The notes below the pieces were generated by a model. It ran no database searches and was not told where the DNA came from. It was given only the letters and a program-made list of their open reading frames with translations. Positions 4,000 through 45,814 of a stretch of 64,000 bases of DNA are shown here, in pieces. Origin of the DNA: a virus; IMG/VR virus record IMGVR_UViG_3300022701_000122, positions 118,758-182,757 of that record. One strand, given 5' to 3'. The position numbers were made by a program, and so were the translations under genes. Positions within the stretch are counted from its first letter, which is position 1. Every line of letters starts with the position of its first letter.

Positions 4000-4089
4000 A
4001 CAAATGAATATATTAATATAATCTAAATAAAATAAGATAATAATATATATAGTTACAACAACGCTATTTAAACAATGAGAGGTCTAAAT

Positions 4090-6858
4090 ATGGCGGTTGA
4101 GAAAATAACAACGGAAGAAGCAAGAAACATATTGTTAATGATGAGTCAAGGGTATAAAGTTCCAAAAATTGTAAAAGATGTAATATTTAAAGTTGCTAAG
4201 ACGGAGATAGAAGATAAAGGGAGAGTCGTAATTATAAAACGCGACCCAAATGTGGGATCACGTCGTATGCAGGGTATGTATGCTAAAATAGTTGATGGTA
4301 GTACTATGGAAATACATCCTGCTATCGTCGGTGGGTTTGGCGCAGATTTTGATGGTGACACCGTTAGGTGCAGACTTCGATGCACTTGTAAATTTGAGAA
4401 AAACGAAACAGGACATACTGTGAATCACGAATGTCATATAGGAGAAATTTTATCTGTTACTAATGCATTTGAGTTTTACAGTAAAGAAGAAAAAAGAAAT
4501 GGTATATTGGTATCGAAATATAAGCCTAAAAAAGGTTATACTGTAAAAATAAAAGCCATTGATATTGAAACTGGCAATGTTGAGATGAAAAATGTTTCTG
4601 AATATTCTATCCACGAATTTATAAAATTATACAAGATAGAAGATACAAAAGATAGATTTGAAACGATTCATGCTTCTTCAGATCATTCATTAATCGTTTA
4701 TGACGATAATGATAAACAGATTAAGAAAATTTCTCCTATAGACTTGTTGGAAAATCTTAATAATAGATATTTAATCAAAGAAAATAATAATACTAAATCA
4801 AATCATTTAAATGATATATCTATACAAAAACTGCAAGAAATGGGATTAGAATTAATACCAGTTTCAGAAGTTAATATAGAGTATGATCCAGATGAAACAA
4901 CTGGATATGATTTAACAGTAGATGATTTCTATACATTTGCAACTCATGATGGTTTATTTATTCAAGATACAATGGCTGTTTATCATCCAATTTCAAATGA
5001 AGCCCAAAAAGAAGTCAAAGATAAAATGATTTCTACATATGGTATAGAAGGATTAAATAAACCAAATTTTGAGTTATCAAAAGAAATGTTGACTGGTATT
5101 TTCACTCTTACATATGATGAGAATAAAAAATCTCAAATCAAAACTATAAAAAAAGCAGATGAAGCGAATACGTTACCCATTGATCAACGTGTTAAATTCA
5201 ATGATATAGAAACAACTGCTGGTAGAGTTGTATTTAATAGTAATTTACCAAAATATATTCCATTTGTTAATGAACCAATTGATAAAAAGAAATTAAATGG
5301 AATACTTGCAGGTATATTAGAAAAAAGTATTCAAGACAATGCCACTACAATTGATAAATTAATGAGAATTGGATTTTTTTATGCTACTGTATACCCAAAA
5401 ACTATGTCTATCGATATGATGAAATTAAATCCAAAACTTATTAAACTTAAACAAAAATTAGCCAATGAAGAAGATATTGCCAGACAAATGGATATTCAGA
5501 ATGAAATGGAATCTGAAATGTTGAAATATCTTGAAAAAAATCATAGCGATATTTTTTATATGGTTAAAAGTGGTGGAGCTAAAGGGAGTAATCAGATACG
5601 TCAATTAATGGTTGCGAAGGGATTAACATCAGACCCAATGGGAAATGTTATACCAGCAATTTCTACCAGTATTTCTGATGGTTATTCTCCAGAAGAATAT
5701 TTTAAAGTGTCTGCTGCTGGAAGGAAGGGTATAATTGATAGAGCATTAAACACCGCTAACGGTGGATATGCTTATAGAAAATTTATCTTCTTAATGGCGA
5801 ATGTTGAAGCAGATATAAATATTGGTGATTGTGATACTCCAAGAACATTAGATATCAAACTAACTAATGAATTGATGAAAAGAATGCCTGGAAGATATGT
5901 ATATAATAATAGTAATAAGATAATTCCCATTAATGAAAAAATGATTGGAAATGTTATAAAATTAAGATCTCCAATATTCTGTAGATCACAAAAGATTTGT
6001 AGAATTTGTTATGGTGATTTATTGAAACAATTGAAGAGTAAAAATGTAGGTATTCTGGCTAGTATGACCTGCACCAGCCTTTCAGAGCGCATAATGAAAG
6101 CATTTCATCTTGGTGGTGCTGTTATATTAAATAGAGTTGATATTATAAATGAAATTATGGATAATTTAAATGATGATATGTTGCAAAAAGTTAAATCATT
6201 AGTTCATCAGAAGGAAGATGACTTATTCAATGATTCTGAATTTGCAACTATAAGAATAGATAAAAATATATATAATTCAACTATACCATCAAATAGAATA
6301 GTCGAAGAACATGGTTTTATAAAATTAGTAGTTGGTCATTTTACATTATCTTTAGATGGGTTTGAAATAAATGTTGAAATAGAACAACCAGTTAAAATAT
6401 ATATTCCAGAAGAACGAGAAGATAATGATAATATAATATCTTGTATGTACGCAAAAGGAGATAAATTATTTAGAATTGAATCAATAAGAGAAGATTTTTC
6501 AAAATTGGCTCAGAATCTTGATGGGTTGGTTGCTGGAAAGTCTCCGTGGTCAAGTATTCCCGGTATATATAAGAAATTTTATAAACAGTTAAGTGTTGTT
6601 GGATCATGGGATTCAGTTCATTTAGAAACTATTATTTCAAATGTATTGAGAGCAAAGCGTAATCCACAAAAACCAGCAAGATTGGTTGAACCATTTGATC
6701 CAGATTTTTATTCAATTAAGAGATTGCCAGGAATGATGTCATGGCCCCTTGGCGTAGCCCTCGAAAATTTTTCTGTGGGGTTGCAAAGTGGGCTATGTGA
6801 GGATCGTGCTCCATCATCTCAAATTGAAAAAGTATTATTTGGAGAACCATTGTATTAA
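4090..6858 (+). CDS. rpoC: RNA polymerase beta-prime, catalytic/C-terminal part, intein-containing
   Basis: GADFDGD|intein|TMAVYHP; TTAGRVVFN; SGGAKG; GRKGIIDRALNTANGGYAYRK; ICRICYG; trigger-loop-like ERIMKAFHLGG. Start placed at MAVEK after a GAGGT SD (the ORF track starts at 4075). Confidence 0.93.
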   Translation: MAVEKITTEEARNILLMMSQGYKVPKIVKDVIFKVAKTEIEDKGRVVIIKRDPNVGSRRMQGMYAKIVDGSTMEIHPAIVGGFGADFDGDTVRCRLRCTCKFEKNETGHTVNHECHIGEILSVTNAFEFYSKEEKRNGILVSKYKPKKGYTVKIKAIDIETGNVEMKNVSEYSIHEFIKLYKIEDTKDRFETIHASSDHSLIVYDDNDKQIKKISPIDLLENLNNRYLIKENNNTKSNHLNDISIQKLQEMGLELIPVSEVNIEYDPDETTGYDLTVDDFYTFATHDGLFIQDTMAVYHPISNEAQKEVKDKMISTYGIEGLNKPNFELSKEMLTGIFTLTYDENKKSQIKTIKKADEANTLPIDQRVKFNDIETTAGRVVFNSNLPKYIPFVNEPIDKKKLNGILAGILEKSIQDNATTIDKLMRIGFFYATVYPKTMSIDMMKLNPKLIKLKQKLANEEDIARQMDIQNEMESEMLKYLEKNHSDIFYMVKSGGAKGSNQIRQLMVAKGLTSDPMGNVIPAISTSISDGYSPEEYFKVSAAGRKGIIDRALNTANGGYAYRKFIFLMANVEADINIGDCDTPRTLDIKLTNELMKRMPGRYVYNNSNKIIPINEKMIGNVIKLRSPIFCRSQKICRICYGDLLKQLKSKNVGILASMTCTSLSERIMKAFHLGGAVILNRVDIINEIMDNLNDDMLQKVKSLVHQKEDDLFNDSEFATIRIDKNIYNSTIPSNRIVEEHGFIKLVVGHFTLSLDGFEINVEIEQPVKIYIPEEREDNDNIISCMYAKGDKLFRIESIREDFSKLAQNLDGLVAGKSPWSSIPGIYKKFYKQLSVVGSWDSVHLETIISNVLRAKRNPQKPARLVEPFDPDFYSIKRLPGMMSWPLGVALENFSVGLQSGLCEDRAPSSQIEKVLFGEPLY
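4360..4968 (+). mobile_element. Mini-intein (203 aa, no endonuclease) in the beta-prime active-site motif
   Basis: Removing it restores ADFDGD-TMAVYH; block B IHASSDHSLIV; blocks F/G GYDLTVDDFYTFATHDGLFIQD; +1 Thr. Confidence 0.85.
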
Positions 6859-6867
6859 AAATTACCA

Positions 6868-6879
6868 TATATATTAAAT
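6868..6879 (+). promoter_or_regulatory. TATATATTAAAT candidate promoter
   Basis: One of 8 exact intergenic copies found by eye. Confidence 0.55.
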
Positions 6880-9409: not shown

Positions 9410-10309
9410 GTGACACAAGGTAGTTATAAGAAACGTAATCCCGAAGATGTTGTTCATAAATGTAGAGTTTGTGGATATGAAGCAACTAATTGGACTGATT
9501 TTAAGAAACATGTAACAAGATGGACAAAATATCATCCAACTCTTGAAAAATATTATATCCGATATATGAAGAACGATGGAGAAGGAATATGTGCTATTGA
9601 TGGTTGTAATAATGAAACTGAATTTATAACAATTAATGGTGATAAATCATATAAATTATATTGCAATGAACACTTTCCAAAACATGTTCAGATAAGAACT
9701 GATGAAGAAATAGAGCATAATAAGAAAGTATGTCAAATATGCGGAAAGGAAAATATAAAGAAGATTGGTGGTCATACATATCTATGTCATAAAATTACTG
9801 CTAAAGAATACTATGATAAATATTTAACGAAGTATGAAGATGAGAAAATATGTTCAGTATGTGGTCGAGATGTTACTTTTACTGGTAGAGTAACGGCAGG
9901 ATATTATAGGACATGTACTCATCTTGGAGTATGTGCTAAATTAGATAAAGAGTACAAAAAGAAACAAAAATCTGTTTCATTAAAAAAATATGGAGTAGAT
10001 AATCCTGCAAAATCTCCTGTAATAATTGAAAAAATAAAAAGATCTACTAAAGAGAATAAGGATAAAGAGTTACGTAGATTAAAACTAAAGCTATCTAAAC
10101 CAAATATATATGTATTAAATATAAAAGAATTTGCTGATAAACATGATATTATAGAATCAAAAAGAAAAAATAGTAAAGAAGAATTAGAATGTATTATTAA
10201 AGAAGTTGATGATGATAATTCTGAATTAGAATGTAGTGATTCGAATGGAATAATTATAAAAAAATCAATAAAAAAAGATAAGACCATCTTCAATTTTGGA
10301 AAATTCTAA
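9410..10309 (+). CDS. Zn-finger protein: two CxxC-H-H/YYxxY/CxxC modules plus one KYGVDNP repeat
   Basis: Paralogous to the N-termini of the two endonucleases; lacks a nuclease domain. Confidence 0.7.
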   Translation: MTQGSYKKRNPEDVVHKCRVCGYEATNWTDFKKHVTRWTKYHPTLEKYYIRYMKNDGEGICAIDGCNNETEFITINGDKSYKLYCNEHFPKHVQIRTDEEIEHNKKVCQICGKENIKKIGGHTYLCHKITAKEYYDKYLTKYEDEKICSVCGRDVTFTGRVTAGYYRTCTHLGVCAKLDKEYKKKQKSVSLKKYGVDNPAKSPVIIEKIKRSTKENKDKELRRLKLKLSKPNIYVLNIKEFADKHDIIESKRKNSKEELECIIKEVDDDNSELECSDSNGIIIKKSIKKDKTIFNFGKF

Positions 10310-10314
10310 CTGTT

Positions 10315-10506
10315 ATGAGAAATAAAGATATAAAGAATCTAATAAAAAATAATATTACATGTAATAAATGTATTGGGTGTGGAAAAAAGTTTGTCACATT
10401 TGAAGATTATATGGATCATATGGAAAGATTTAAACAACGAGTTAAATTAATAATAGTTCTTAAAAAAATAATATTGAAAGCGATTGATTCTAATGATGAT
10501 AACTAA
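10315..10506 (+). CDS. Small Zn-finger-like protein
   Basis: CIGCGKKF..FEDYMDH. Confidence 0.55.
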   Translation: MRNKDIKNLIKNNITCNKCIGCGKKFVTFEDYMDHMERFKQRVKLIIVLKKIILKAIDSNDDN

Positions 10507-10822
10507 AGAAATTCAATACACTGAAAATGTACCTACATTCAAAACTCGACAGTTAACTTTTCCAATATATTTAATATATGATATGACTAATAAAGATAAT
10601 CCAAATGAACAAGAATGTTGTCTTTATTGGAGAATAGATGAGTTTTTAAATTGTACTAAAATATATATAAATGATTGTTTTGATAGCAAATCTATTACAT
10701 TAGAATTTGAGCAAATAGACGGAACAAAATTAATAGAAATGATGAATGAATATAATGAAACAAATGAATGTGATTTCAGATCAGCAATATGTGAATTAGA
10801 GAATAAGATGTTAAATTTGTGA
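10493..10822 (+). CDS. Hypothetical protein
   Basis: ORF (the track starts at 10484). Confidence 0.6.
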   Translation: MMITKEIQYTENVPTFKTRQLTFPIYLIYDMTNKDNPNEQECCLYWRIDEFLNCTKIYINDCFDSKSITLEFEQIDGTKLIEMMNEYNETNECDFRSAICELENKMLNL

Positions 10823-10830
10823 AAAAAACA

Positions 10831-11047
10831 AGCATTTACTTATTACCCGAATAATTCGGTAAATGCTCTGGCGCACATACTTCACGCCAATTTCTCGTAT
10901 AGGACCATGTACTCTCTGATATCCATGATCCCATTCGGGTTTACGGTCAGGGCACCAATCTTGACAACGGGTGCTTTTATTAACTACATATATGTATCAG
11001 AGCCATATATATAGCACACTATAGAAAGTACAAATTTTCTATAGTGT
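10831..11047. ncRNA. Candidate structured RNA, possibly on the minus strand
   Basis: GC-enriched ORF-free gap with 6-7 stems; on the minus strand it ends in a hairpin plus U tract. Confidence 0.4.
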
Positions 11048-11086
11048 TATTACTTAATATATAGTGAATTTATAAGGAGAAATTGT

Positions 11087-11350
11087 ATGAATAAGTTAAA
11101 ATGTAGAGAGTGTGGAAAAGAGTTTAAAAATGTAGCTGCTACAAGTAGACATGTAACAAAAGAACATAATATGAAAGTTAAAGATTATTATGATAAATAT
11201 TTTAAAGAAAATGGAGAAGATAAGTGTAAAAACGATCTTTGTGTTGGAGGTGGAAAGAACAGTTTTCTATCATTGGGTAGAGGGTACAATAATTGCTGTT
11301 GTACTAAGTGTGGATCAATATGGGGATTAAGTCGAAATAAGAAAGGGTAG
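11087..11350 (+). CDS. Stand-alone Zn-finger module protein
   Basis: CRECG..H...H.MKVKDYYDKY...C...C...GRGY..CC..C. Confidence 0.75.
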   Translation: MNKLKCRECGKEFKNVAATSRHVTKEHNMKVKDYYDKYFKENGEDKCKNDLCVGGGKNSFLSLGRGYNNCCCTKCGSIWGLSRNKKG

Positions 11351-11354
11351 ATTT

Positions 11355-11609
11355 ATGAATGATAAAACAAAGTGTAAACTATGTGAAAAAAAATTTGTAA
11401 ATATATCAGAAATCAGTAAGCATATAATAAACGATCATAATATTTCAGTTAAAGAATATTATGATCGTTTTTATAAGGAAGATGGAGAAGGAGAGTGTGC
11501 AAATATCATATGTGGAAAAGAAACAAGATTTTTGTCATTAGGTCGTGGATATAATTTATGTTGTAGTACTGGTTGTGGAATGGATTATGGTCGCTGGCAA
11601 AAAAACTAA
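11355..11609 (+). CDS. Stand-alone Zn-finger module protein (paralog)
   Basis: CKLC..H...H..VKEYYDRFY...GEC...CG..TRFLSLGRGY. Confidence 0.75.
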   Translation: MNDKTKCKLCEKKFVNISEISKHIINDHNISVKEYYDRFYKEDGEGECANIICGKETRFLSLGRGYNLCCSTGCGMDYGRWQKN

Positions 11610-11633
11610 ACCTTATTGGAGGACAAATTTTAA

Positions 11634-11882
11634 ATGATATGTCAGATATGCAAAAAGAGATATGATGATTCATATTGGTTTTTATATCATTTAACTAAAG
11701 GTTACAATGAGGGTACTCATTGTAGTCATCAAGAATATTATGACAGATTCATGGCAATTGATGGGAATGATGTTTATTGCATTCGAAAAGGATGTGATAA
11801 CTTATGTAAACTAATAGATGCTATATCTGGATATGAAGATTATTGTTCAAAAGAATGTGAACAAAAAGATAAAAGGGTGTAA
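11634..11882 (+). CDS. Stand-alone Zn-finger module protein (paralog)
   Basis: CQIC...H...H.SHQEYYDRF...C..C...GY..YCSKEC. Confidence 0.7.
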   Translation: MICQICKKRYDDSYWFLYHLTKGYNEGTHCSHQEYYDRFMAIDGNDVYCIRKGCDNLCKLIDAISGYEDYCSKECEQKDKRV

Positions 11883-11888
11883 TAAATT

Positions 11889-13853
11889 ATGTATACATAC
11901 TTGTCAGAAGAATACATTGAAGAATTTACTATGTTTTCTCCAGAAATAAAAGAAGCTGGTAAATATATTACTGTTTCTAAATTTCCAGTAAACATATTTA
12001 AAGCTGATCTAAAAAGGCAATATAATACTATAAAAATTGCCAATGTTTTTGATCATGCTTTCTTATTCTTTGGAACTGGTAAATTAAGAATTCATAAATT
12101 CTTCTTACCAGAATTTGTATATCTTCTGACAATATTACCACCTTATCCCATCTATTCAAAAGTAAGAGAACTTATATATAGAGATACATGGATGGCAAAT
12201 ACTGTTAAGAATTTTTCATCCATAATTGATTATTCGGCTATATCTAAAATGCTATTTACTCCAATGTCTCATCAGAAGAAGTTTATTGATTTATATCAAG
12301 ATAGAAAACAAAAATTTCTTCTTAATGGATATATATTGGCATTTGACATGGGCCTCGGAAAAACTGCCACATCTTTATTTTTAATGGAAGGGTTACATAA
12401 AGATGTAGTAATCATCATTGCTCCAAAAAGTACCTTGTTACCCGTTTGGAGCAATGAGATTGATAATATATTTAAAGATCATAAAGAAAAATGGCTACCA
12501 TTTGATAGACCAAAACCAGCAGATTTTTTTATTGTTAATTATGAATCCATAGATAAATTAAAAAATGTTTTACCATATTTAAGAAGAGCAAAAAATGTTG
12601 GTATAGTTGTTGATGAATGTCATAATTTCAGAAATGCTAAAACAAAGAGAGTTCAAAATCTAAAGAAAATAGCCGATTTAACAAATTGTAAAGATATATT
12701 GTTAATGAGTGGTACTCCAATTAAAGCATTGGGAACTGAAATTATACCAGTTCTTGAACTCATTGATCCATTTTTCGATGATGAGAGCAAAGTTGTATTC
12801 AAAAAAGCTTTTGGTGTAAATGTGCCAGTTGCACTCGATATTGTTAAGAATAGACTTGGTATAATGATGCATAGGAAGTTGAAGACAGAAGTTCTTAAGC
12901 TTCCAAAAAAATTTATAAAAGAAATAAAAATAAAAATAAGTAATGGGATGGATTTTACTCTTGTATCTGTTAAGAAACAAGTTATGGATTTTATAGTTGA
13001 AAGAAAAGCATATTATGCCAAAAATATGTACAAATATAGAGCAGATTACAATGAATGTATTGTGTATCTTAGATCACAAATACCATATAATGATCCAGAT
13101 TTTGTAGAATATAGAAAAATAGTCGATTATCTTACTAAAAAAGGTTATGATCGACAGAATCAAAAAGTTGTAGAAAAAGTTGCTTGGGCTAATAATTACG
13201 AAAAAGAAGTATTACGTCCATTATTAACATCAGAACTAAAAAAGAAATTTGATAAATCTAAATCTGCTGTAAAATATGTAGATTTGAAGATAATGGGTGA
13301 AGTCATAGGTGGATTGTTATCAAGACTTAGAGTAGCGATGTTTAAAGAGATGATAAATAATAGTCCAACTTGTAAAATAATAAATGATGCTAAGAAAAAA
13401 ACAGTTATGTTTACAACTTATGTGGACGTTTTAAAAGAAGCAAATAGTTATTTAAGAAGAAAATGTAAAAAAGATCCAATATTGATTTATGGAGATACAA
13501 GTAAGAATATAAAAACTGAATTAAGAAAATTTAAAGCCGATGAGACAATTAATCCACTTGTTGCAACAATTCAAACACTTTCAACTGGTGTTACGCTAGT
13601 TGAAGCAAATACTGTCATCTTTATAAATAAGCCTTGGAGAGATGCAGATATGCAGCAAGCTACAGATCGAATATACCGCATTGGTCAGACGGATGATGTT
13701 TACATATATACATATACATTAGATACTGGAAATGAACCAAATCTTTCAACTCGAATGGATGATATATTAGCATGGTCTAAAGAGATGTTTGAAGGGATAG
13801 TTGGTGAAAAGGAAGCCGAACAAGTTATAAAAAGATTAGCTTATAGAGGATAG
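11889..13853 (+). CDS. SNF2-family helicase/ATPase with N-terminal tag (MYTYLSEEYIEE)
   Basis: DMGLGKT, VNYESI, DECH, MSGTP, STGVTL, QATDRIYRIGQ. Confidence 0.9.
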   Translation: MYTYLSEEYIEEFTMFSPEIKEAGKYITVSKFPVNIFKADLKRQYNTIKIANVFDHAFLFFGTGKLRIHKFFLPEFVYLLTILPPYPIYSKVRELIYRDTWMANTVKNFSSIIDYSAISKMLFTPMSHQKKFIDLYQDRKQKFLLNGYILAFDMGLGKTATSLFLMEGLHKDVVIIIAPKSTLLPVWSNEIDNIFKDHKEKWLPFDRPKPADFFIVNYESIDKLKNVLPYLRRAKNVGIVVDECHNFRNAKTKRVQNLKKIADLTNCKDILLMSGTPIKALGTEIIPVLELIDPFFDDESKVVFKKAFGVNVPVALDIVKNRLGIMMHRKLKTEVLKLPKKFIKEIKIKISNGMDFTLVSVKKQVMDFIVERKAYYAKNMYKYRADYNECIVYLRSQIPYNDPDFVEYRKIVDYLTKKGYDRQNQKVVEKVAWANNYEKEVLRPLLTSELKKKFDKSKSAVKYVDLKIMGEVIGGLLSRLRVAMFKEMINNSPTCKIINDAKKKTVMFTTYVDVLKEANSYLRRKCKKDPILIYGDTSKNIKTELRKFKADETINPLVATIQTLSTGVTLVEANTVIFINKPWRDADMQQATDRIYRIGQTDDVYIYTYTLDTGNEPNLSTRMDDILAWSKEMFEGIVGEKEAEQVIKRLAYRG

Positions 13854-32866: not shown

Positions 32867-32938
32867 ATCTACTATCTCTTCGAGATAGATTAAAATTTTA
32901 TATATATAATGAATATATTATATATATATTAAGTATTA

Positions 32939-33487
32939 ATGGATACGATTCAGAAACGAATCGAAAATGCTATCCATGAGACTAAGCGTCTCTCGAAAGA
33001 AGTCGAAGGATTTCCGACCGACTACTTTCAAAATACGCTTAAGTCTCGCCAACCGGATGGTATCGGTTCGACATTTAATGGGAGAGTCACTGAAGACGAT
33101 CTCATTAATGCTGAATGGAAACCATTTAAACATCCGTCTGTAGCAGACGGATGTACGGCATTCATCACCCATAATTTGGGGGGTAAAGTGGGTGTCGTGA
33201 GGTTGGATGATCTCCCGAATCTAACCGTCATCGAACTCGATGATGGTAAAGAGACGGGCCAAGTATCTGCAGTTGTAGATCGAGAGGATATTGATCTTCA
33301 TCGATATTCTGTCGATTATACTGTGCTGATTCTTGGTCAGGAAATGGAAAGTGAAGTAGTATACACTTTCCATCCCGGAGATCCAGTTTTTCCATCTAAT
33401 GTCTCTTCGGAGATATTGGTTGGTACAATAGTTTTAGTCCAAGAAGCTATATCTCTTGGATTGGAATATTGTAAGATTAGAGGGTAA
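32939..33487 (+). CDS. Hypothetical protein in a higher-GC island
   Basis: Long ORF with GC-richer codons; preceded by the variant motif TATATATTAAGT. Confidence 0.75.
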   Translation: MDTIQKRIENAIHETKRLSKEVEGFPTDYFQNTLKSRQPDGIGSTFNGRVTEDDLINAEWKPFKHPSVADGCTAFITHNLGGKVGVVRLDDLPNLTVIELDDGKETGQVSAVVDREDIDLHRYSVDYTVLILGQEMESEVVYTFHPGDPVFPSNVSSEILVGTIVLVQEAISLGLEYCKIRG

Positions 33488-33727
33488 CTTCTAATCTGAA
33501 AACGTGCTAAATGGTTACTTATAAAGTGTAGCCATCCAATCGCGTAAGAATTGGTAAAAACTTTATACGAGAAGCAAAAAACTCGGCAATGTGAGAAAGC
33601 ATTGAAAAAATCAGTGGAATACCACTATAAAAGTAATGGTTTAGTCAGCCATATATCTAACAAAAATGATACTGGAATATGCTCCAGGGAACACGTTTGC
33701 ATTACGTGTTTTTTATTAAAATCACTA

Positions 33728-33739
33728 TATATATTAAAT
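33728..33739 (+). promoter_or_regulatory. TATATATTAAAT candidate promoter
   Basis: Exact copy ~150 nt upstream of the 33891 gene. Confidence 0.55.
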
Positions 33740-33890
33740 TCTAACATAACGTTGCATATTACGTTTATGAAAATATGCCGTGAGAGACTCCAGCGAAGAT
33801 ATTCTGGGTAAACAGATCTGACAAATCTGGTGACTGAATATTATAAGCACGGAGCATTGGACACGTAAATCCAATGGAGGGAGGATTCTT

Positions 33891-34799
33891 ATGTTGGATA
33901 ATATTTCCAAGATCGTCTGTGGGTTTAAGGTCGATCTTGATATTATCGGTGCTCTTTGGCTTTTAGCTTTTCGTTTCGACGTTAAGGCCGATGCCATTGA
34001 GTTCGTCTTTGGCGATGCAAAGGCTGAAGATCTTTCCGACCCAACCGTAGTTTGTATCGAATGCGGTGGAAGCGGTCGAGTCGATCTGATGAACTTTGAT
34101 CATCATGGCGAAGGATCTGAAGGTCTCGTTTCGGCGACCTGGCAGGCTTATGATAAATATAAGCCAGTCGGTGTCTACACCGAAGATACTCAGCGTATCG
34201 TAAAATACATCGATACGATGGATAGATTCGGCCCGGACGAGATCCGAAAATACTCTATCGGGGAACCCCCGTTCCTCTCCGACATAATTTCCGGTATCTT
34301 TCTGGTTAATCCGAAAGATAACGCGAAAAAGGTCGAAGAAGGGATATTGTTTCTCGACGATATTTCCCGCAGTGGAATTGATCCTTTTGGATCGATGAAA
34401 CTGTTGGTCGATGAAAATGAACATTATGTTCAATTCGTCGATGCACACGCCGAAAATAAACGGCAAGTGCAGAAGGTCGTCGAAAAGGCAACATGGGGTA
34501 AGACAAAGTCGGGGCTTATTATAGCTTCGGTGGAGTCTGGTTTCTTTGGAACCATAGGTGCACTGTATGAAAATGGTGCACAAGTGGTCGTGGCTGTTAA
34601 TCCCAATTTCCAAGGGATTAGAAAGTTTACGGTCGCTGGTAACAAGGGAATCTCCGTTGCCCCCGCTGCTGACGACATCAGTAAAGTCGAAAGTGGTTGG
34701 GGTGGACCGCCAAGTGGCACGATTATCGGCAGCAACCAGAAAAAAGATTCAGAATTGGATCTTGAACTGGTTACGCGGATAGTCGTCTCGGCGATCTAA
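33891..34799 (+). CDS. DHH/MYG1-like metal-dependent hydrolase
   Basis: VDLDIIGALWLL, IECGG..NFDHH, IDTMD; GGAGGGAGG SD; higher GC. Confidence 0.6.
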   Translation: MLDNISKIVCGFKVDLDIIGALWLLAFRFDVKADAIEFVFGDAKAEDLSDPTVVCIECGGSGRVDLMNFDHHGEGSEGLVSATWQAYDKYKPVGVYTEDTQRIVKYIDTMDRFGPDEIRKYSIGEPPFLSDIISGIFLVNPKDNAKKVEEGILFLDDISRSGIDPFGSMKLLVDENEHYVQFVDAHAENKRQVQKVVEKATWGKTKSGLIIASVESGFFGTIGALYENGAQVVVAVNPNFQGIRKFTVAGNKGISVAPAADDISKVESGWGGPPSGTIIGSNQKKDSELDLELVTRIVVSAI

Positions 34800-34805
34800 G
34801 AGACG

Positions 34806-34925
34806 TGATCCAGACCGAAGCGCGGGCCAGAGTGGGTGAAAATCCCATGTACAGATACGCGCTATAAACCCCGCAACCTGCGGGATCTGGCAGTCGGATA
34901 GAGCCACTATTACATTGGCTCGAAA
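34806..34925 (+). ncRNA. Candidate structured RNA downstream of the hydrolase
   Basis: CCAGA/TCTGG closing stem, GCGCG/CGCGC, TGGG-TGAAAAT-CCCA, CCCGCA-ACC-TGCGGG, GAGCCA/TGGCTC. Confidence 0.35.
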
Positions 34926-35063
34926 AGGGAAATATGATGAAACCCATCCGACAACCATTTGGGACTATCATGTCAAATCTCAAATGGAAATATATAAAGT
35001 GCAAAGAATACCACTTTATATATTTTTTGTAAAATTTATTATATTTATAAAGGAGAATATATC

Positions 35064-37392: not shown

Positions 37393-37420
37393 TAATTAAT
37401 CTTTCCAAATTTTTCAGATT

Positions 37421-40389: not shown

Positions 40390-40631
40390 TTTTCATTTAT
40401 TAATGGAGATTTTATAATGACGATTTTAATGAAACAATCTGGAAAAGTGAACTACCCAGCGACTGCTAAAGCAGATCACGGGGTTTCCTACTCTGGCGAA
40501 TTATAAAATTAAACATAATAATAGAAAGATAGACGATATATTTAAAGTTATGGAAAGTAATAAAATATTTGCATCTCATGATAGATCAATAGAATTTTTA
40601 TTTCTGTAGAGATAGAAAAAAGGAGGCTTAT

Positions 40632-40968: not shown

Positions 40969-41319
40969 ATGAATAGATCTGAAGAAATAGAAGAAAAAAT
41001 GAAAAGAATAGATGAACTGAATGATGAAAAGAATGCTTTAATGGTTAAGCTAAAACGATCATTACAAATACAAGAAATTTGGCCCGATGCATTTGATTAT
41101 GGATCAGTAGTTTGTTCTTTATCTGGAAATATTCATAAAGATGAACTTATGTTTTCTATAAGAAATGGTAAAGATGAAGTAAGACTTTTTAAATTGGAAG
41201 AAGTTCCAATACATCTATTAGAGCATCAGATAGATATTCAAAAAAAGAAAGTCAATGACCATTTCAAACGTATGTTTGATAATATATTAAAAGATATTAA
41301 GAAGAGAAAAGGTGGTTGA
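40969..41319 (+). CDS. Hypothetical protein
   Basis: AGGAG SD. Confidence 0.75.
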   Translation: MNRSEEIEEKMKRIDELNDEKNALMVKLKRSLQIQEIWPDAFDYGSVVCSLSGNIHKDELMFSIRNGKDEVRLFKLEEVPIHLLEHQIDIQKKKVNDHFKRMFDNILKDIKKRKGG

Positions 41320-41771
41320 AAATGGATTGGATTAAATTTGGTGTTTTTGTGATTGGTGGGATATTTGGATTTATACTGATTTATATAACAAAACATTTAA
41401 TAATTATGTTTAATAATAATAAATCGAAAAAAACTAAAGAATTATCACCATCAGAAGAACTTATAAGAATAATCATGAAAGAAGAAGAAAAGAATATAAA
41501 GAATAATAATGAATATGATAAATTGAAGGGTACTTATGATATGTTGATGAAGATGATTGATTCTGAAAAATTACAAGTCGATAGATATAGATTATTTAGA
41601 GAATATGAAAAATTACAATCAAAAATAGATTGTATTAATAAACCAAAAGAGAAAGTATATTATGCAAATGAAGTTACAATCAAAAATAAAAATATGAGAG
41701 ATAAGAAATTGAGAAAAGAACTTGGTATTCAAACATTCAATAATTTTCATAGTACTGAATGGGGCGAATAA
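41316..41771 (+). CDS. Membrane-anchored coiled-coil protein
   Basis: N-terminal hydrophobic helix. Confidence 0.7.
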   Translation: MKMDWIKFGVFVIGGIFGFILIYITKHLIIMFNNNKSKKTKELSPSEELIRIIMKEEEKNIKNNNEYDKLKGTYDMLMKMIDSEKLQVDRYRLFREYEKLQSKIDCINKPKEKVYYANEVTIKNKNMRDKKLRKELGIQTFNNFHSTEWGE

Positions 41772-42097: not shown

Positions 42098-42424
42098 ATG
42101 ATTAGTTTGTTTTTATTTGTGAGTGTAGTTACGAATGTCATATTGGCTGCTATGCTGTGTCAATCAAGATTACATGAAGAAGCATATCGAAATAAAATAA
42201 TCAAACTCAGTTGTGCAACTGATGATATAGTTGATGAATTTACAAATCTTGTTCTTGAAAGAGATAGAAAAAATGATGAGAATAAAATAAGTGTAGAAGA
42301 TCGATTATTTGAAAAATATGATGCTTTCAATGATATGATAAAATCTGGAACTTTAAATGTAACCGAAGATGAATTGAGACAATTCATGCTTAAAGCTAAG
42401 ATAAAAAAACTTATTGTTGATTAA
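42098..42424 (+). CDS. Membrane-anchored hypothetical protein
   Basis: N-terminal hydrophobic helix; GGAGAG SD. Confidence 0.7.
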   Translation: MISLFLFVSVVTNVILAAMLCQSRLHEEAYRNKIIKLSCATDDIVDEFTNLVLERDRKNDENKISVEDRLFEKYDAFNDMIKSGTLNVTEDELRQFMLKAKIKKLIVD

Positions 42425-42443
42425 ATATATATTCAACTGACTA

Positions 42444-42455
42444 TATATATTAAAT
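42444..42455 (+). promoter_or_regulatory. TATATATTAAAT candidate promoter of the tRNA/ncRNA operon
   Basis: Exact copy 30 nt before tRNA-Leu. Confidence 0.6.
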
Positions 42456-42484
42456 TATAATCAAAGATCAATTTAGATTTTTGT

Positions 42485-42569
42485 GCCGGGATGATGGAAT
42501 CAGGTCTACATATCGGACTTAAAATCCGAGGTCATTGCGACCGTGCGGGTTCGAGTCCCGCTCCCGGTA
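42485..42569 (+). tRNA. tRNA-Leu(TAA)
   Basis: GCCGGGA/TCCCGGT acceptor; TCGGA-CTTAAAA-TCCGA; long variable arm; GTTCGAGTC. Confidence 0.92.
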
Positions 42570-42587
42570 CTCAATTAATCTTTGATT

Positions 42588-44082
42588 TTATAATGAGCAC
42601 AATCTTTATTTATCAATATTTAATCCGTTTGGTTGATTCGTGCCGAGTCAAGATTGTGTTCATTATAAACTGATCGAGCAAAACGAGAACATCATGCACT
42701 CGAAAGAGATTGGTGTTCATTCCGTTTACAAACACCGATGCTCGATCAGTTTACTATGAGTACAACGTTATCTGTTGCTTGATGGGGAAGCTATGGCTCA
42801 AGCAACGTATATAAATCTTATAAGGTTTATATATTATGATAACGTTGTATTCATCAATTTAAAGAGATTGAAGATTTTGTTGTTGATTTTCGTGGCAGTC
42901 AATCAATAACGAGATCTTCAACTCTTAATTAGTATATTGTAATATGGTTCCATGCATTTGTCGGATAAAATGTCGTCCATGTAGTGGATGATTAAAGCTA
43001 ATCCGATACAATCATAGTACACGTAAATGTGCATGATTGATGCATTGAGACGCGGCTGTGGTGGTCGTGTCAAAACGGCAGTAAGATGTCGTGATTATTT
43101 TGCGATGAGTGCAGATAATCAAAGATCGGTGATTAATTTACGTTAATCATTGCAATGTGTCATCGGTCATATTCAGGGAGTATTGTCTAACCAACGAGTC
43201 TCCCTGCATGGAATCATATTAGAATATATTAGTCGTCGTCAATCAGCAACTCTTCGCTTTTATGTCATGGGCGTTGAGTGTAAGACTGATTGGCCTGTGA
43301 GTAATCGGATAAATATTAAGGAAGGAGGTGATACCCACATATGAGTTTGATATAACGATAAGATAAGGGCATCGGCGGTTATTATTCATACCGGATGTAT
43401 AATCGCCACAAACGATGGTGCCCGATTTGGTTTCTCAGATGGGGAGATGGTAAAAAGTAGAATACCCACTCAAACTGTCCCATTTCCCCATTTGAGTCTT
43501 TTATATATGTATTAATCTGGTCACAAGTTTGAGAGCTTTACGGTTGCGGCAGACAACCCCTTCTTCTCTCTAATGATTACGATATTATTTAATCCTATTT
43601 CTCGTATCGTAATCATGGCTTGTGATCAGATTAATGCATATATATGCAAATGCTTTGATTTGGGTTCTCTTAATAAGTTCTTAGACCTTGATCGGTGACG
43701 CAAACTGTCAATGTTGGGGAACTCAAATCATTCAATTTATATGTAGTAAACTGATCATGAGACTCGCTTGCATGTATATGGAATATGGTACGCGCATACC
43801 ATCCTCCCACATACATGCCCATGATCAGTTTAGTGTGTATAAGTTATCTTAAATTTTAATATGCCTATGGAATAATCACAGAATCCCTGCCGATTGGCGG
43901 CATTAATGGTTATGGTTATTTCTAAATAAAATAAAAGGGATAGTAAATGAGTCGGTTTCTAACTCCTTTCTGACTCATTTGCGATAGAGATGCATTTATG
44001 TGACGGAATTAATATTTGATGGATTTTAATATCCATTCCACATCTCGTATAAAAATTCCATAGGCATATTAAAGTTCAAGAT
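42588..44082 (+). ncRNA. Array of back-to-back RNA units closed by long stems
   Basis: Stems of about 13-21 bp close 42588-42668, 42667-42752, 42756-42854, 42862-42926, 42942-43219, 43434-43496, 43507-43639, 43656-43730, 43747-43832 and 43846-44082; mismatches are mostly G-U compatible; no credible ORF. Confidence 0.7.
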
Positions 44083-44102
44083 ATATTGTAATTTAATTAT
44101 GT

Positions 44103-44179
44103 GGACCCTTCGCCAAGTCTGGTAAGGCCATCGGCTCATAACCGATCATTCGCTGGTTCGAATCCAGCAGGGTCCACCA
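44103..44179 (+). tRNA. tRNA(CAT): elongator Met or lysidine-type Ile2
   Basis: GGACCCT/AGGGTCC acceptor; ATCGG-CTCATAA-CCGAT; no initiator GGG/CCC; CCA. Confidence 0.9.
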
Positions 44180-44279
44180 CTCTTAATTATTTGATTTTAT
44201 TAAATATATTTTTTATTTAGAAAGTAATTGGAGAAGAGTTATGAATTAGATCGATTACTTTATAATATATAATTCATAT

Positions 44280-44369
44280 GGAAGAGTGGCTGAGTGGTTT
44301 AAAGCAATGGTCTTGAAAACCATCGACGTTTAAAAGCGTCCGGAGGTTCGAATCCTCTCTCTTCCGCCA
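44280..44369 (+). tRNA. tRNA-Ser(TGA)
   Basis: GGAAGAG/CTCTTCC acceptor; ATGGT-CTTGAAA-ACCAT; long variable arm; G73 + CCA. Confidence 0.93.
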
Positions 44370-44449
44370 TCAAAAACATGCAGTTAACCAGAAAACCAAT
44401 CAGAAAGGAGGTAACATGATGATAAGAATAAGAGATCATGATAGATAAT

Positions 44450-44887
44450 TTCATTAGGGAGAGATGGGTGGGAAGAGTACAGAGTAGGAGGAAGTAACAA
44501 GATTTATTGTGTTACACGCTTATAATAATAGATATAGGATCTAAGTTATAGATCTGATTTCATACATATCTACGTATTATAAAGCGTGTCGTGAAATACT
44601 CGGAACCTCACCGACTTGGCACATCAATAAGTCCATTGTATTCGGTGTGGGTGGATTGGGGTGGCATATTAATAAAAAATTATATTATTAGTTAGTACTA
44701 TAGAGTAAGTATTTAGTGTACTGATTATATCTAATTTATAAGATTAGATATAATTAAGTTGATCTAAATTAAGATTTAGATCAACATGCGACGGAAAATC
44801 CCGACAAGGACTTCGCATAGTAGTAAGCTGGAACGGTGATATGATTCTGCGATTTATATATTATAGAATAAGCAGAATCATATCACT
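44450..44887 (+). ncRNA. Further structured non-coding segment
   Basis: ACACGCTTATAATA/TATTATAAAGCGTGT long hairpin; perfect 15-bp GTGATATGATTCTGC/GCAGAATCATATCAC hairpin; G-rich tracts. Confidence 0.45.
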
Positions 44888-44971
44888 TTCAGTTATTAAT
44901 ATTTTTTAAAATTTTATTTTTTATTTGAAAAGTAATACGAATAGGACAAATACATAAATTGGGAGATTATC

Positions 44972-45124
44972 ATGGGTTTAGTATTACCATTATTAATTAC
45001 TGGTTCAATATTATGTTTATCTAAAACTTTTAGAAAGGAGGCATCAGAAACAATATTTGGACTTATTGGTCTATCTGATATCTTTGAACGCGAAATAAAA
45101 GATGAAAATTTAAAAGAAGATTGA
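44972..45124 (+). CDS. 50-aa membrane-anchored protein, not in the ORF track
   Basis: GGGAG SD; MGLVLPLLITGSILCLSKTFRK... Confidence 0.55.
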   Translation: MGLVLPLLITGSILCLSKTFRKEASETIFGLIGLSDIFEREIKDENLKED

Positions 45125-45253: not shown

Positions 45254-45814
45254 ATGGCAATATTAAATGATTTTGTATCGGAAAAAGTTATTTTTGATAA
45301 TGCATTTGCAAAATTACTATTAAATGAGAAGCTTGTGGCTACATACATGGGCGAATTTGAAAATAGAAGAGAAGAAGATTGGCGAGATAAAGAATGCACA
45401 CAATGTGCTCCAGGTAATCCGTGCAAAAAACATAATCTTCTTTCAAAACTCTATGATTGCGATAAATGTATAAAATTCAAAAATGTGAATAATGGATATA
45501 CAGTATTCATGACAAAGTTTTTTATATTTAAATATAATGAACCTGAAAACTTACTTATATTCATAGATTGCCCTCCTTTTCAACTTGATGATTCAAATAA
45601 TAGTGATCAATTATCAGATTTATGGATAAGAAAAATAACACCATTCACTGTAAGAGTTGAAGATTTCAATATGCCTGAAGTTGTTCAAGTAATAGATTTA
45701 CAAATGATACGACAGTATCCAATGTTGACTATTCTATCATCGAATCATGTATTAGAATTACACAATGTGAAGAATTTATTTCGATGGAAATTAGTTAAGA
45801 AAAATCACTACTAA
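45254..45814 (+). CDS. Cys-containing hypothetical protein
   Basis: CTQC...C...CDKC; GAGG SD. Confidence 0.75.
   Translation: MAILNDFVSEKVIFDNAFAKLLLNEKLVATYMGEFENRREEDWRDKECTQCAPGNPCKKHNLLSKLYDCDKCIKFKNVNNGYTVFMTKFFIFKYNEPENLLIFIDCPPFQLDDSNNSDQLSDLWIRKITPFTVRVEDFNMPEVVQVIDLQMIRQYPMLTILSSNHVLELHNVKNLFRWKLVKKNHY

Follow-up and report, generated by a model that had tools for sequence, protein, structure and literature searches.

We analysed a 64,000-nt stretch of the IMG/VR virus record IMGVR_UViG_3300022701_000122 (“the window”), i.e. bases 118,758-182,757 of a viral contig of 182,757 bp (G000 in our genome set). The subject of this analysis is an island at positions 42,456-44,890, which contains three tRNA genes and at least 13 non-tRNA modules, each with a terminal helix (“clamp”) of 14-36 bp. 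All coordinates refer to the window unless another record is named. The window has a GC content of ~27%, and all large genes are on the plus strand, as are the genes and tRNAs around the island. The gene set of the phage includes split multisubunit RNA polymerase-like proteins (Rpb1 and Rpb2 domains), both topoisomerase II (Topo II) subunits, an SNF2 helicase, a DEAD helicase, and an SbcC-like ATPase; therefore, the record represents a large, jumbo-type phage, which belongs to an uncultivated clade. The closest Topo II large subunit in a collection of 5.8 billion proteins is 60% identical, and the nearest cultured phage is ~32% identical. CheckV estimated the completeness of the record at 58%.

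The island appears to be devoid of protein-coding genes. No open reading frame (ORF) between 42,456 and 44,890 is longer than 64 codons, and none has a credible start codon, Shine-Dalgarno (SD) motif or product, so that small proteins were rejected as an explanation of this region. The tRNA genes, all predicted by both ARAGORN and Rfam on the plus strand, are tRNA-Leu(UAA) at 42485-42570, tRNA-Met(CAU) with an encoded CCA end at 44103-44179, and tRNA-Ser(UGA) at 44280-44369. The tRNA-Leu gene is itself clamped by a 15-bp leader-trailer helix, which is formed by an inverted repeat (42459-42473 and 42573-42587; fold z-score -4.4). The flank duplex of this tRNA has a z-score of -2.4, and none was found at the other six tRNAs of the window.

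The non-tRNA units follow on the plus strand without delay. U1 (42588-42668, z -7.2) is a long hairpin with a stem of 19-28 bp. U2 (42666-42753, z -6.9) is a hairpin closed by TAAACTGATCGAGCA and TGCTCGATCAGTTTA, and for its outer extension it makes use of arms that belong to U1 and U3. U3 (42756-42854, z -8.8) consists of a 17-bp clamp around two hairpins, and U4 (42862-42926, z -8.6) is a hairpin of 27-29 bp without cargo. The largest unit, U5 (42930-43231), has a 26-bp clamp around a multibranch RNA of 250 nt (minimum free energy (MFE) -118.7, z -9.8); at E<=10 it had no Rfam match beyond a chance-level snoRNA (ceN40, E 5.4). It is followed by three hairpins (43238-43294, 43304-43359, and 43361-43428), which are domains of the global fold; taken together, 43238-43428 does not fold significantly better than shuffled sequence (z -1.7). 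U6 (43434-43496, z -5.7) has a 17-bp clamp with a pair probability of 1.00 and an interior of 29 nt, U7 (43502-43644, z -10.5) a 28-bp clamp around two hairpins, and U8 (43656-43730, z -4.0) a 15-bp clamp with an interior of 45 nt. U9 (43734-43845, z -6.4) is a long hairpin of ~42 stacked pairs with the clamp TAAACTGATC, and U10 (43838-44090, z -8.1) is bounded by an inverted repeat that forms a clamp of 28-36 bp around a three-branch RNA of 181 nt. The tRNA-Met gene starts 12 nt past U10. Three further units lie downstream of tRNA-Ser: U11 (44514-44589), with a 14-bp clamp and an interior of 47 nt, is the weakest unit (z -3.7 for 44510-44592) and has no strand preference; U12 (44723-44785) comprises two perfect AT-rich hairpins of 15 bp and 12 bp (z -6.4 for 44700-44790); and U13 (44835-44887) is a 16-bp hairpin that closes the non-coding stretch (z -7.6 for 44826-44890).

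An earlier, sequence-only reading of this region had described back-to-back units, each closed by a long stem, and the units were indeed found near the positions given there. Each is flanked by inverted repeats of 17-36 nt with 81-95% complementarity, and the z-scores, calculated against dinucleotide-preserving shuffles, span -3.7 to -10.5. For each unit of that reading, none of 100-200 shuffles folded as well as the natural sequence. The output of a permissive inverted-repeat finder was too noisy for statistics. A single MFE fold of 42440-44200 reproduced the unit boundaries almost to the base; it consists of 14 abutting closed domains of 56-306 nt, which are separated by spacers of 0-11 nt. 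These are 42464-42589 (the clamped tRNA-Leu), 42590-42666, 42667-42752, 42756-42854, 42862-42926, 42928-43233, the three hairpins within 43238-43428, and 43434-43496, 43502-43644, 43656-43730, 43735-43844, and 43845-44083. Most of the earlier unit bounds thus stood, those of U5 and U7 had to be corrected to the values given above, and the region 43232-43433, which had been left between units, turned out to contain the three additional hairpins and a mini-ORF. In this fold, the clamp pair probabilities are mostly 0.8-1.0, and 11 of the 14 domains have at least 20 stacked pairs before the first branch. Clamps of 25-36 bp are present in U1, U2, U4, U5, U7, U9, and U10. Four of these units (U1, U2, U4, and U9) are plain hairpins of 27-42 bp with interiors of 6-58 nt, i.e. 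with almost no cargo. The interiors had also been described as GC-richer, which was weakly confirmed (GC fractions of 0.32 for the arms, 0.37 for the interiors, and 0.28 for the window).

For comparison, the plus strand of the complete 182.7-kb record was scanned for structure. The fraction of 120-nt segments with z < -3 is 15% in the island and 1% genome-wide, and the record has just two plus-strand structure hot spots, the island and the region 32.2-35 kb of the window.

The composition of the terminal helices was used to address the level at which the structures are selected. The helices contain 73 G-C, 185 A-U, and 28 G.U pairs, and only four A.C and nine other 1x1 mismatches. A decaying DNA palindrome would be expected to yield G.T and A.C mismatches equally. 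The observed G.U:A.C ratio of 28:4 deviates from this expectation (binomial p = 2e-5), also when base composition, which predicts a ratio of 1.34:1, is allowed for (p = 2.5e-4). In addition, the plus strand folds more stably than the minus strand, by 8.7 kcal/mol for U1, 9.8 for U3, 13.0 for U4, 45.5 for U5, 9.9 for U7, and 10.5 for U8. The G.U excess and the energy difference between the strands argue for selection of the island structure at the level of the plus-strand RNA, in agreement with the earlier proposal that the stem mismatches are mostly G-U compatible and indicate selection on RNA.

A comparison of the clamps with one another points in the same direction. The arms differ from unit to unit except for two small paralogous groups. 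The clamps of U2, U7, and U9 have the sequence TA(A/T)A(A/T)CTG(A/G)TC in common, and those of U1 and U3 share ATGAG(C/T)ACAA. A clamp of 10 bp is identical in U2 and U9, which are the two units that had been recognised before as having the same clamp (42666-42753 and 43747-43832), and the U7 clamp is related to it. Between the U7 and U9 clamps, 15 pairs are identical, three have one-sided changes that preserve pairing, one has a two-sided compensatory change, and one is broken. The U1 and U3 clamps differ by one two-sided compensatory change and have kept the same G.U pair. The paralogous clamps have thus retained pairing through two-sided changes or G.U intermediates. Beyond the clamps, self-BLAST and local alignment detected no relationship between the units, and each unit is present in a single copy in the record.

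The array is embedded in what seems to be a tRNA transcription unit. A motif, TATATATTAAATNNTAAC, occurs in 14 copies (with two mismatches at most) in the window, compared to 2.2 expected copies, mostly on the plus strand and in intergenic regions. It has the form TATATATTAAAT-NN-TAAC, and most copies are in gaps right behind stop codons. They include copies at 6868, 21712, 30828, 31500, 32923, 33728, 42444, 57600, and 63910 on the plus strand and at 11046 on the minus strand. In many cases a hairpin starts 1-7 nt past the motif, suggesting that transcripts start at the motif with a 5′ stem-loop. The motif is likely to be the promoter of the phage-encoded RNA polymerase. The copy at the island (TATATATTAAAT-NN-TAAT, 42444-42461, plus strand) is located 24 nt upstream of tRNA-Leu, and the 5′ arm of the tRNA-Leu clamp occupies the position of the post-motif hairpin. 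A terminator scan found no GC-rich hairpin with a directly following U tract at any unit end of the island, and no adjacent U-tract terminator was called at U13; such terminators are present elsewhere in the phage (for example after tRNA-Pro and near 37,420).

Two further sequence similarities were observed at the borders of the tRNA genes. An AT-rich repeat of 35 nt is present at 44194-44228 on the plus strand, behind tRNA-Met, and at 44901-44936, behind the last hairpin (83% identity over 36 nt in self-BLAST, E 1e-4). Both copies are 36-52 nt upstream of the next gene, and the repeat, which may delimit additional transcription units, is a candidate second promoter class, punctuation signal or terminator-promoter joint. 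The 3′ trailers of tRNA-Leu (42571-42595) and tRNA-Met (44180-44202) are alike (CTCAATTAATCTTTGATTTTAT and CTCTTAATTATTTGATTTTAT, respectively), which may reflect a 3′ processing signal; CTCTTAATTA is also present 3′ of U4.

Could the island have originated at the DNA level, as a collection of selfish or recombination-generated palindromic elements of the MITE, Correia or PeSL type in a dispensable tRNA region, with the RNA folds as a by-product? The inverted-repeat boundaries of the units, the arms that are common to several units, and the absence of the island from related phages, as for an insertion hot spot, are compatible with this idea. T4-type phages are known to shuffle cassettes bounded by promoter-stem-loops (PMC2839356, PMC4122927), and a promoter motif with a hairpin is also present here. 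However, PeSL elements border protein genes and operate as DNA elements, whereas the repeats of the island are unit-specific, single-copy, and biased towards G.U pairs, as is typical for RNA. MITE and Correia elements, which have inverted-repeat boundaries as well, form multi-copy families and are associated with target-site duplications; in contrast, the island units are single-copy, and no consistent target-site duplication was seen in the spacers. The exact U2/U9 clamp was not recovered from other viral contigs in IMG/VR, and a PHROGs screen of six neighbouring ORFs recognised no transposase, integrase or homing endonuclease family. Together with the G.U:A.C ratio and the energy gap, which indicate that one strand is under selection as RNA, these results make a DNA-level origin unlikely. 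The same screen assigned no PHROG function to any of the six ORFs, and those at 41316-41771 and 45254-45814 had no meaningful Pfam match. A replication origin was rejected as well, because the cumulative GC skew continues straight across the island.

The genome contains another RNA operon, which helps to interpret the clamps. This second operon is located outside the window, on the plus strand at positions 10,046-12,250 of the record (the loci L129:241-1148 and L130:790-935 correspond to 10,041-12,235), and is preceded by the same promoter motif. It comprises a 5′ hairpin, a clamped orphan unit, tRNA-Lys, tRNA-Phe, and further small RNAs. The orphan unit (L129:296-406, z -8.1) has a 17-bp clamp with two G.U pairs as the sole imperfections. 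Four consecutive cargoes, i.e. tRNA-Lys, an orphan RNA, tRNA-Phe, and a YrlA-like RNA, have an enclosing two-part clamp in common. In this clamp, the outer helix of 6-8 bp (UGGGUAG/CUACCCA, GGAACAG/CUGUUCC, UGGGUG/CACCCA, and UGAUGGAG/CUCCAUCA) covaries completely: all sequences differ and pairing is kept in four of four copies. An asymmetric internal loop (5′ AC/3′ AUUA) is present in two of the four copies, and an inner helix of 10-11 bp in three of them, with a shorter one at tRNA-Phe. The arrangement, with an asymmetric internal loop between two helices, resembles the R1.1-type sites of phage T7. The YrlA-like RNA (L129:857-963) matches the YrlA family (RF02553) end to end with a sub-threshold score (26.6 bits versus a threshold of 69, E 5e-4) and contains a T arm, an acceptor-like hairpin, and a D arm in the YrlA order; no TROVE/Rsr gene was found in the 58%-complete record. 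A search of IMG/VR with the scaffold pattern of the second operon returned 15 chance matches only.

The operon has additional features of its own. A leader motif, GACTTTAAAATCATTACAG, occurs six times in it. Two sequences (L129:995-1148 and L130:793-932) are tRNA-like, with an acceptor stem, a T arm, and an encoded CCA (L129) or CCAA (L130), and the latter has a CAU anticodon-like loop. Neither was called by ARAGORN. Both carry a hairpin of 55-60 nt with the clamp motif just past the 5′ acceptor strand, at the place of the D arm. Candidate interpretations are split tRNAs, tRNAs with an intron, and molecules of the tmRNA type.

As a mature tRNA cannot keep such flanks, the leader-trailer clamps must be removed by processing in this phage. 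The presence of real tRNAs in the same kind of clamp indicates, by extension, that the stems of the island most likely serve processing or stability and that the functional part of the units lies elsewhere. Since no catalogued family matches the island, and it is a non-coding plus-strand array in a tRNA transcription unit, a polycistronic cassette of small RNAs, as had been suggested before, is the best description. Specifically, we favour, with slightly more than even confidence, a stable-RNA operon in which the clamps serve as RNase III-type processing stalks. Transcription would start at the TATATATTAAAT-type promoter at 42444, and the first plus-strand transcript would run from tRNA-Leu through ~13 non-tRNA modules, each with a fold of its own, to tRNA-Met. 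The tRNA-Ser gene would belong to a second, short unit together with three or four more modules. The modules would fold one by one during transcription, with the terminal helices (14-36 bp, mostly at least 25 bp) pairing the 5′ and 3′ flanks of each module. Two helical turns (at least 20 bp) define the substrate size class of RNase III, the determinants of which have been reviewed (PMC1540722). The double-strand-specific RNase III of the host could cut helices of at least 20 bp and thereby separate the units, and the residual stem would shield both ends of the products from exonucleases. The predicted products are mature tRNAs (after RNase P cleavage and 3′ trimming), orphan structured RNAs (U3, U5, U7, U10, and others), and bare double-stranded RNA (dsRNA) hairpins. 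Alternatively, RNase E or RNase Y could cut in the AU-rich spacers and generate the same products. The folds, the bias towards plus-strand RNA, the promoter motif, the lack of ORFs, and the clamps around real tRNAs are features seen in the sequence, and transcription of the island, RNase III as the nuclease, the stability of the products, and any role in trans are inferred from them.

The four units with almost no cargo point to a different possibility, namely that the dsRNA hairpins are themselves the product and the interiors are incidental. They could act as decoys or sponges for a dsRNA-binding factor of the host; candidates are RNase III itself, a defence system that senses dsRNA or structured RNA, or an RNA chaperone. 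The hairpins of 27-42 bp with interiors of 6-58 nt, the presence of at least 13 such stems within one tRNA operon that is presumably highly transcribed, and their lineage-specific, fast-diverging nature, as expected of molecules in an arms race, would be in accord with this role. Yet the same kind of clamp surrounds real tRNAs in the island and in the second operon, indicative of processing, the interiors of U5, U7, and U10 are large, strongly structured, and have a plus-strand bias of their own, and no candidate binding protein (dsRBD, TROVE) was found in the record. We thus regard this as a rather unlikely explanation.

It could also be argued that the array acts only in cis, e.g. by polymerase pausing or antitermination, by insulating the tRNA folds or by protection against exonucleases, and that it gives rise to no functional trans-acting RNA. 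It would fit that the array shares a transcription unit with tRNA-Leu and tRNA-Met, which lie on either side of it, and a 5′ hairpin is, judged from the motif, common at transcript starts of this phage. However, 1.5 kb of structured RNA would be a large cost for two tRNAs, the other tRNAs of the window lack such flanks, and U5 and U10 have interiors that are more elaborate than a spacer would require; a function restricted to cis is accordingly quite improbable.

Large ornate RNAs such as GOLLD and ROOL occur next to phage tRNAs, and the earlier reading had also considered one giant structured RNA of this type, i.e. a fold of ~1.6 kb as a whole, of the GOLLD, ROOL or OLE class. A 13-bp AU helix can in fact close 42449-44097 in the MFE fold. 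But this helix overlaps the promoter and contains only A-U and G-U pairs, all other structure consists of local abutting domains, and no Rfam family matched at E<=10, so that a single giant RNA is highly improbable. GOLLD (RF01998) and ROOL (RF03087) are similar to the island in being highly structured non-coding RNAs close to phage tRNAs, but each of them is one multi-domain fold of 500-800 nt, whereas the island consists of 14 local domains of 56-306 nt without a covariance-model match.

Searches with Rfam release 15, at gathering thresholds for the window and at E<=10 for 42400-45000, returned the tRNAs and chance matches to miRNA-precursor models only. In the latter region, GOLLD, ROOL, tmRNA, RNase P, 6S RNA, YrlA, ribozymes, and CRISPR repeats were absent at E<=10, which includes the four families for which an Infernal comparison had been proposed (GOLLD, ROOL, tmRNA, and RNase P). 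Within the island, the T-arm motif (TTCRANN loop, 5-bp stem) is confined to the three annotated tRNAs, and no unit has an anticodon-arm motif. Two suggested functions of the small RNAs found no support: crRNA mimicry, as 42400-45000 has no repeat-spacer pattern, no regular direct repeats, and no CRISPR direct-repeat family at E<=10, and antitoxin activity, as the neighbourhood of the island contained no recognisable partner toxin gene, with no test aimed at the antitoxin reading. An msr/msd RNA of a retron was rejected because the 182.7-kb record has no RVT_1 match, and archaeal bulge-helix-bulge splicing motifs were rejected because the near-perfect duplexes of the clamps contain no 3-nt bulges. 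Reverse transcriptase (RVT_1), RtcB, and RNA ligase had no match in the record, which is weak evidence because the record is 58% complete. When the island was compared with 50,697 phage records by blastn, the tRNAs alone were matched, and contigs with 55-60% Topo II identity (including L005, L008, and IMG/VR relatives) contained no syntenic island. Full-text literature searches found no description of such stem-clamped arrays.

Several results weigh against an operon of processed stable RNAs. BLAST found no similarity to the units in the related genomes G001-G004, and nhmmer had no match for any non-tRNA unit in 124 loci, which included the whole of G001 and G002 (complete relatives of 223 and 236 kb) and 10-kb flanks of ~80 relatives. 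The exact U2/U9 clamp pattern (TAAACTGATC...GATCAGTTTA) had 12 matches in IMG/VR, all of them chance matches in coding DNA. The tRNA regions of the relatives lack clamp arrays: in G002, the region with 18 tRNAs consists of coding sequence apart from these genes, the tRNA-Leu(UAA) is without a clamp, and a fold scan of this genome flagged coding DNA only. The cargo RNAs therefore appear to be orphans, and the array may be of recent origin or dispensable. Genes for RNase III or dsRBD proteins were not found, which is again weak evidence in a record of this completeness. The plus strand has a G>C skew, and strand-asymmetric C-to-T mutation may supply part of the G.U excess. As we infer the start site of transcription from the motif, the RNA may or may not begin early enough to contain the 5′ arm of the tRNA-Leu clamp. 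Lastly, the release of cargo RNA leaves the near-cargo-less units U1, U2, U4, and U9 unexplained.

Several observations were made beside these analyses. The middle one of the three hairpins between U5 and U6 (43304-43359) contains a perfect SD motif of 11 nt (43322-43332, AAGGAGGTGAT, complementary to the 3′ end of the 16S rRNA), which is followed by the mini-ORF ATG AGT TTG ATA TAA (43341-43355, MSLI*). Another strong SD motif (AAAGGAGGT) precedes a mini-ORF of 10 codons at 44406-44448 on the plus strand (ATG at 44416, MMIRIRDHDR*). The two segments (43316-43360 and 44406-44448) are related (local alignment z 4.1) and are reminiscent of minigenes of the lambda bar type or of ribosome-binding decoys. 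Directly after tRNA-Tyr, at 40408-40510, an 11-bp AU clamp surrounds a GC-richer segment (z -2.8), which can also be read as an SD-led ORF of 29 codons, so that it is ambiguous whether this is a small gene or an RNA. The region 32900-35000 is GC-rich (0.39-0.47 versus 27% for the genome) and has the strongest plus-strand folding signal outside the island. Its ORFs (32939-33487 and 33891-34799) have no Pfam match, and an antisense ORF of 216 codons overlaps the second; the region comprises either foreign genes or, in part, a large non-coding RNA. The Rpb1-like RNA polymerase subunit (4075-6858) has a sub-threshold match to an intein splicing domain (residues 158-292, 24.6 bits). In G003, a genome with 43% Topo II identity, two ORF-free stretches of 0.73 and 1.07 kb lie beside tRNAs on the minus strand (L092:3971-4700 and 5429-6500). 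They have GC contents of 0.43-0.45, form a single large domain each (z -5.3 and -9.3), and are not clamp arrays; they match no Rfam family and are candidate large phage non-coding RNAs.

To put the island into perspective, we compared it with known systems. The stable RNAs of phage T5 (rnaI, rnaIII, rnaIV, rna2H, rnaX, and others; NC_005859, “stable RNA with unknown functions”) are non-tRNA RNAs that are interleaved with same-strand tRNAs behind phage promoters, as in the island. When we folded RNAIII, RNAIV, and RNA2H, the ends were found to be paired in a closing stem around two or three hairpins, again similar to the island units. However, the T5 closing stems have 8-12 bp (the size of a tRNA acceptor stem) compared to 14-36 bp in the island, the T5 RNAs are scattered among ORFs and not arranged as 14 abutting units, and they fold with modest z-scores (-0.7 to -3.0). 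No non-tRNA unit had nhmmer similarity to the tRNA region of T5. Phage T4 encodes the species 1 and 2 RNAs (rnaC and rnaD; NC_000866) at the end of its tRNA cluster, and these small stable RNAs beside tRNAs are likewise island-like. In contrast to the island, there are just two of them, and both lack a long clamp: rnaC resembles a tRNA, has a T arm, and is closed by a short stem, and the structure of rnaD is weak (z -0.8).

The clamps themselves have a counterpart in the leader-trailer helices of 16S and 23S rRNA and in T7 R1.1-type sites (PMC1540722), where a helix of at least two turns, formed by the flanks, brackets a stable RNA. Flank-formed helices of about two turns, the size of an RNase III stalk, are predicted for 11 of the 14 island domains. 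The difference is in the cargo, which in the island consists mostly of small orphan RNAs or of nothing. YrlA (RF02553) and other Y RNAs, which are associated with Ro60/Rsr, also form a structured module that is closed by a long stem between the two RNA ends, but no island unit matches YrlA, and neither TROVE/Rsr nor RtcB was found in the 58%-complete record.

Taken together, the array is real, has been shaped at the RNA level, and is uncatalogued. It is best filed with the stable RNAs of phage tRNA clusters, equipped with putative RNase III-type processing stalks, and is set apart by the length of its clamps (14-36 bp), its density (14 abutting units), and the bare dsRNA hairpins. In more general terms, it is conceivable, and here we are tentative, that the RNA operons of large uncultivated phages follow a “clamp-and-cargo” grammar that has not been described before. 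Any small RNA, be it a tRNA, a Y-RNA-like molecule, an orphan structured RNA or a bare dsRNA hairpin, would be placed between two complementary flanks, which would insulate its folding and direct its excision by RNase III. Such a grammar might provide a fast-evolving library of swappable stable RNAs against RNA-handling or defence proteins of the host; the island, with 14 abutting cassettes and idiosyncratic clamps, would be the extreme case and the second operon the conserved form.

To our knowledge, “stable RNAs of unknown function” have been known in phage tRNA clusters since the work on T4 and T5, and nobody has explained them. The island presents this phenomenon in a concentrated form, with ~1.6 kb of a jumbo-phage genome devoted to at least 13 stem-locked RNAs. 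Should the clamps be RNase III stalks, they would offer a simple rule to find phage small-RNA genes that are missed by homology searches, a natural design for multiplexed RNA expression, and candidate anti-host RNAs whose partners could be fished out. If, on the other hand, the clamps remain uncut, the island would be a dense natural source of long dsRNA in a bacterium, which bears on the sensing and tolerance of dsRNA in bacteria.

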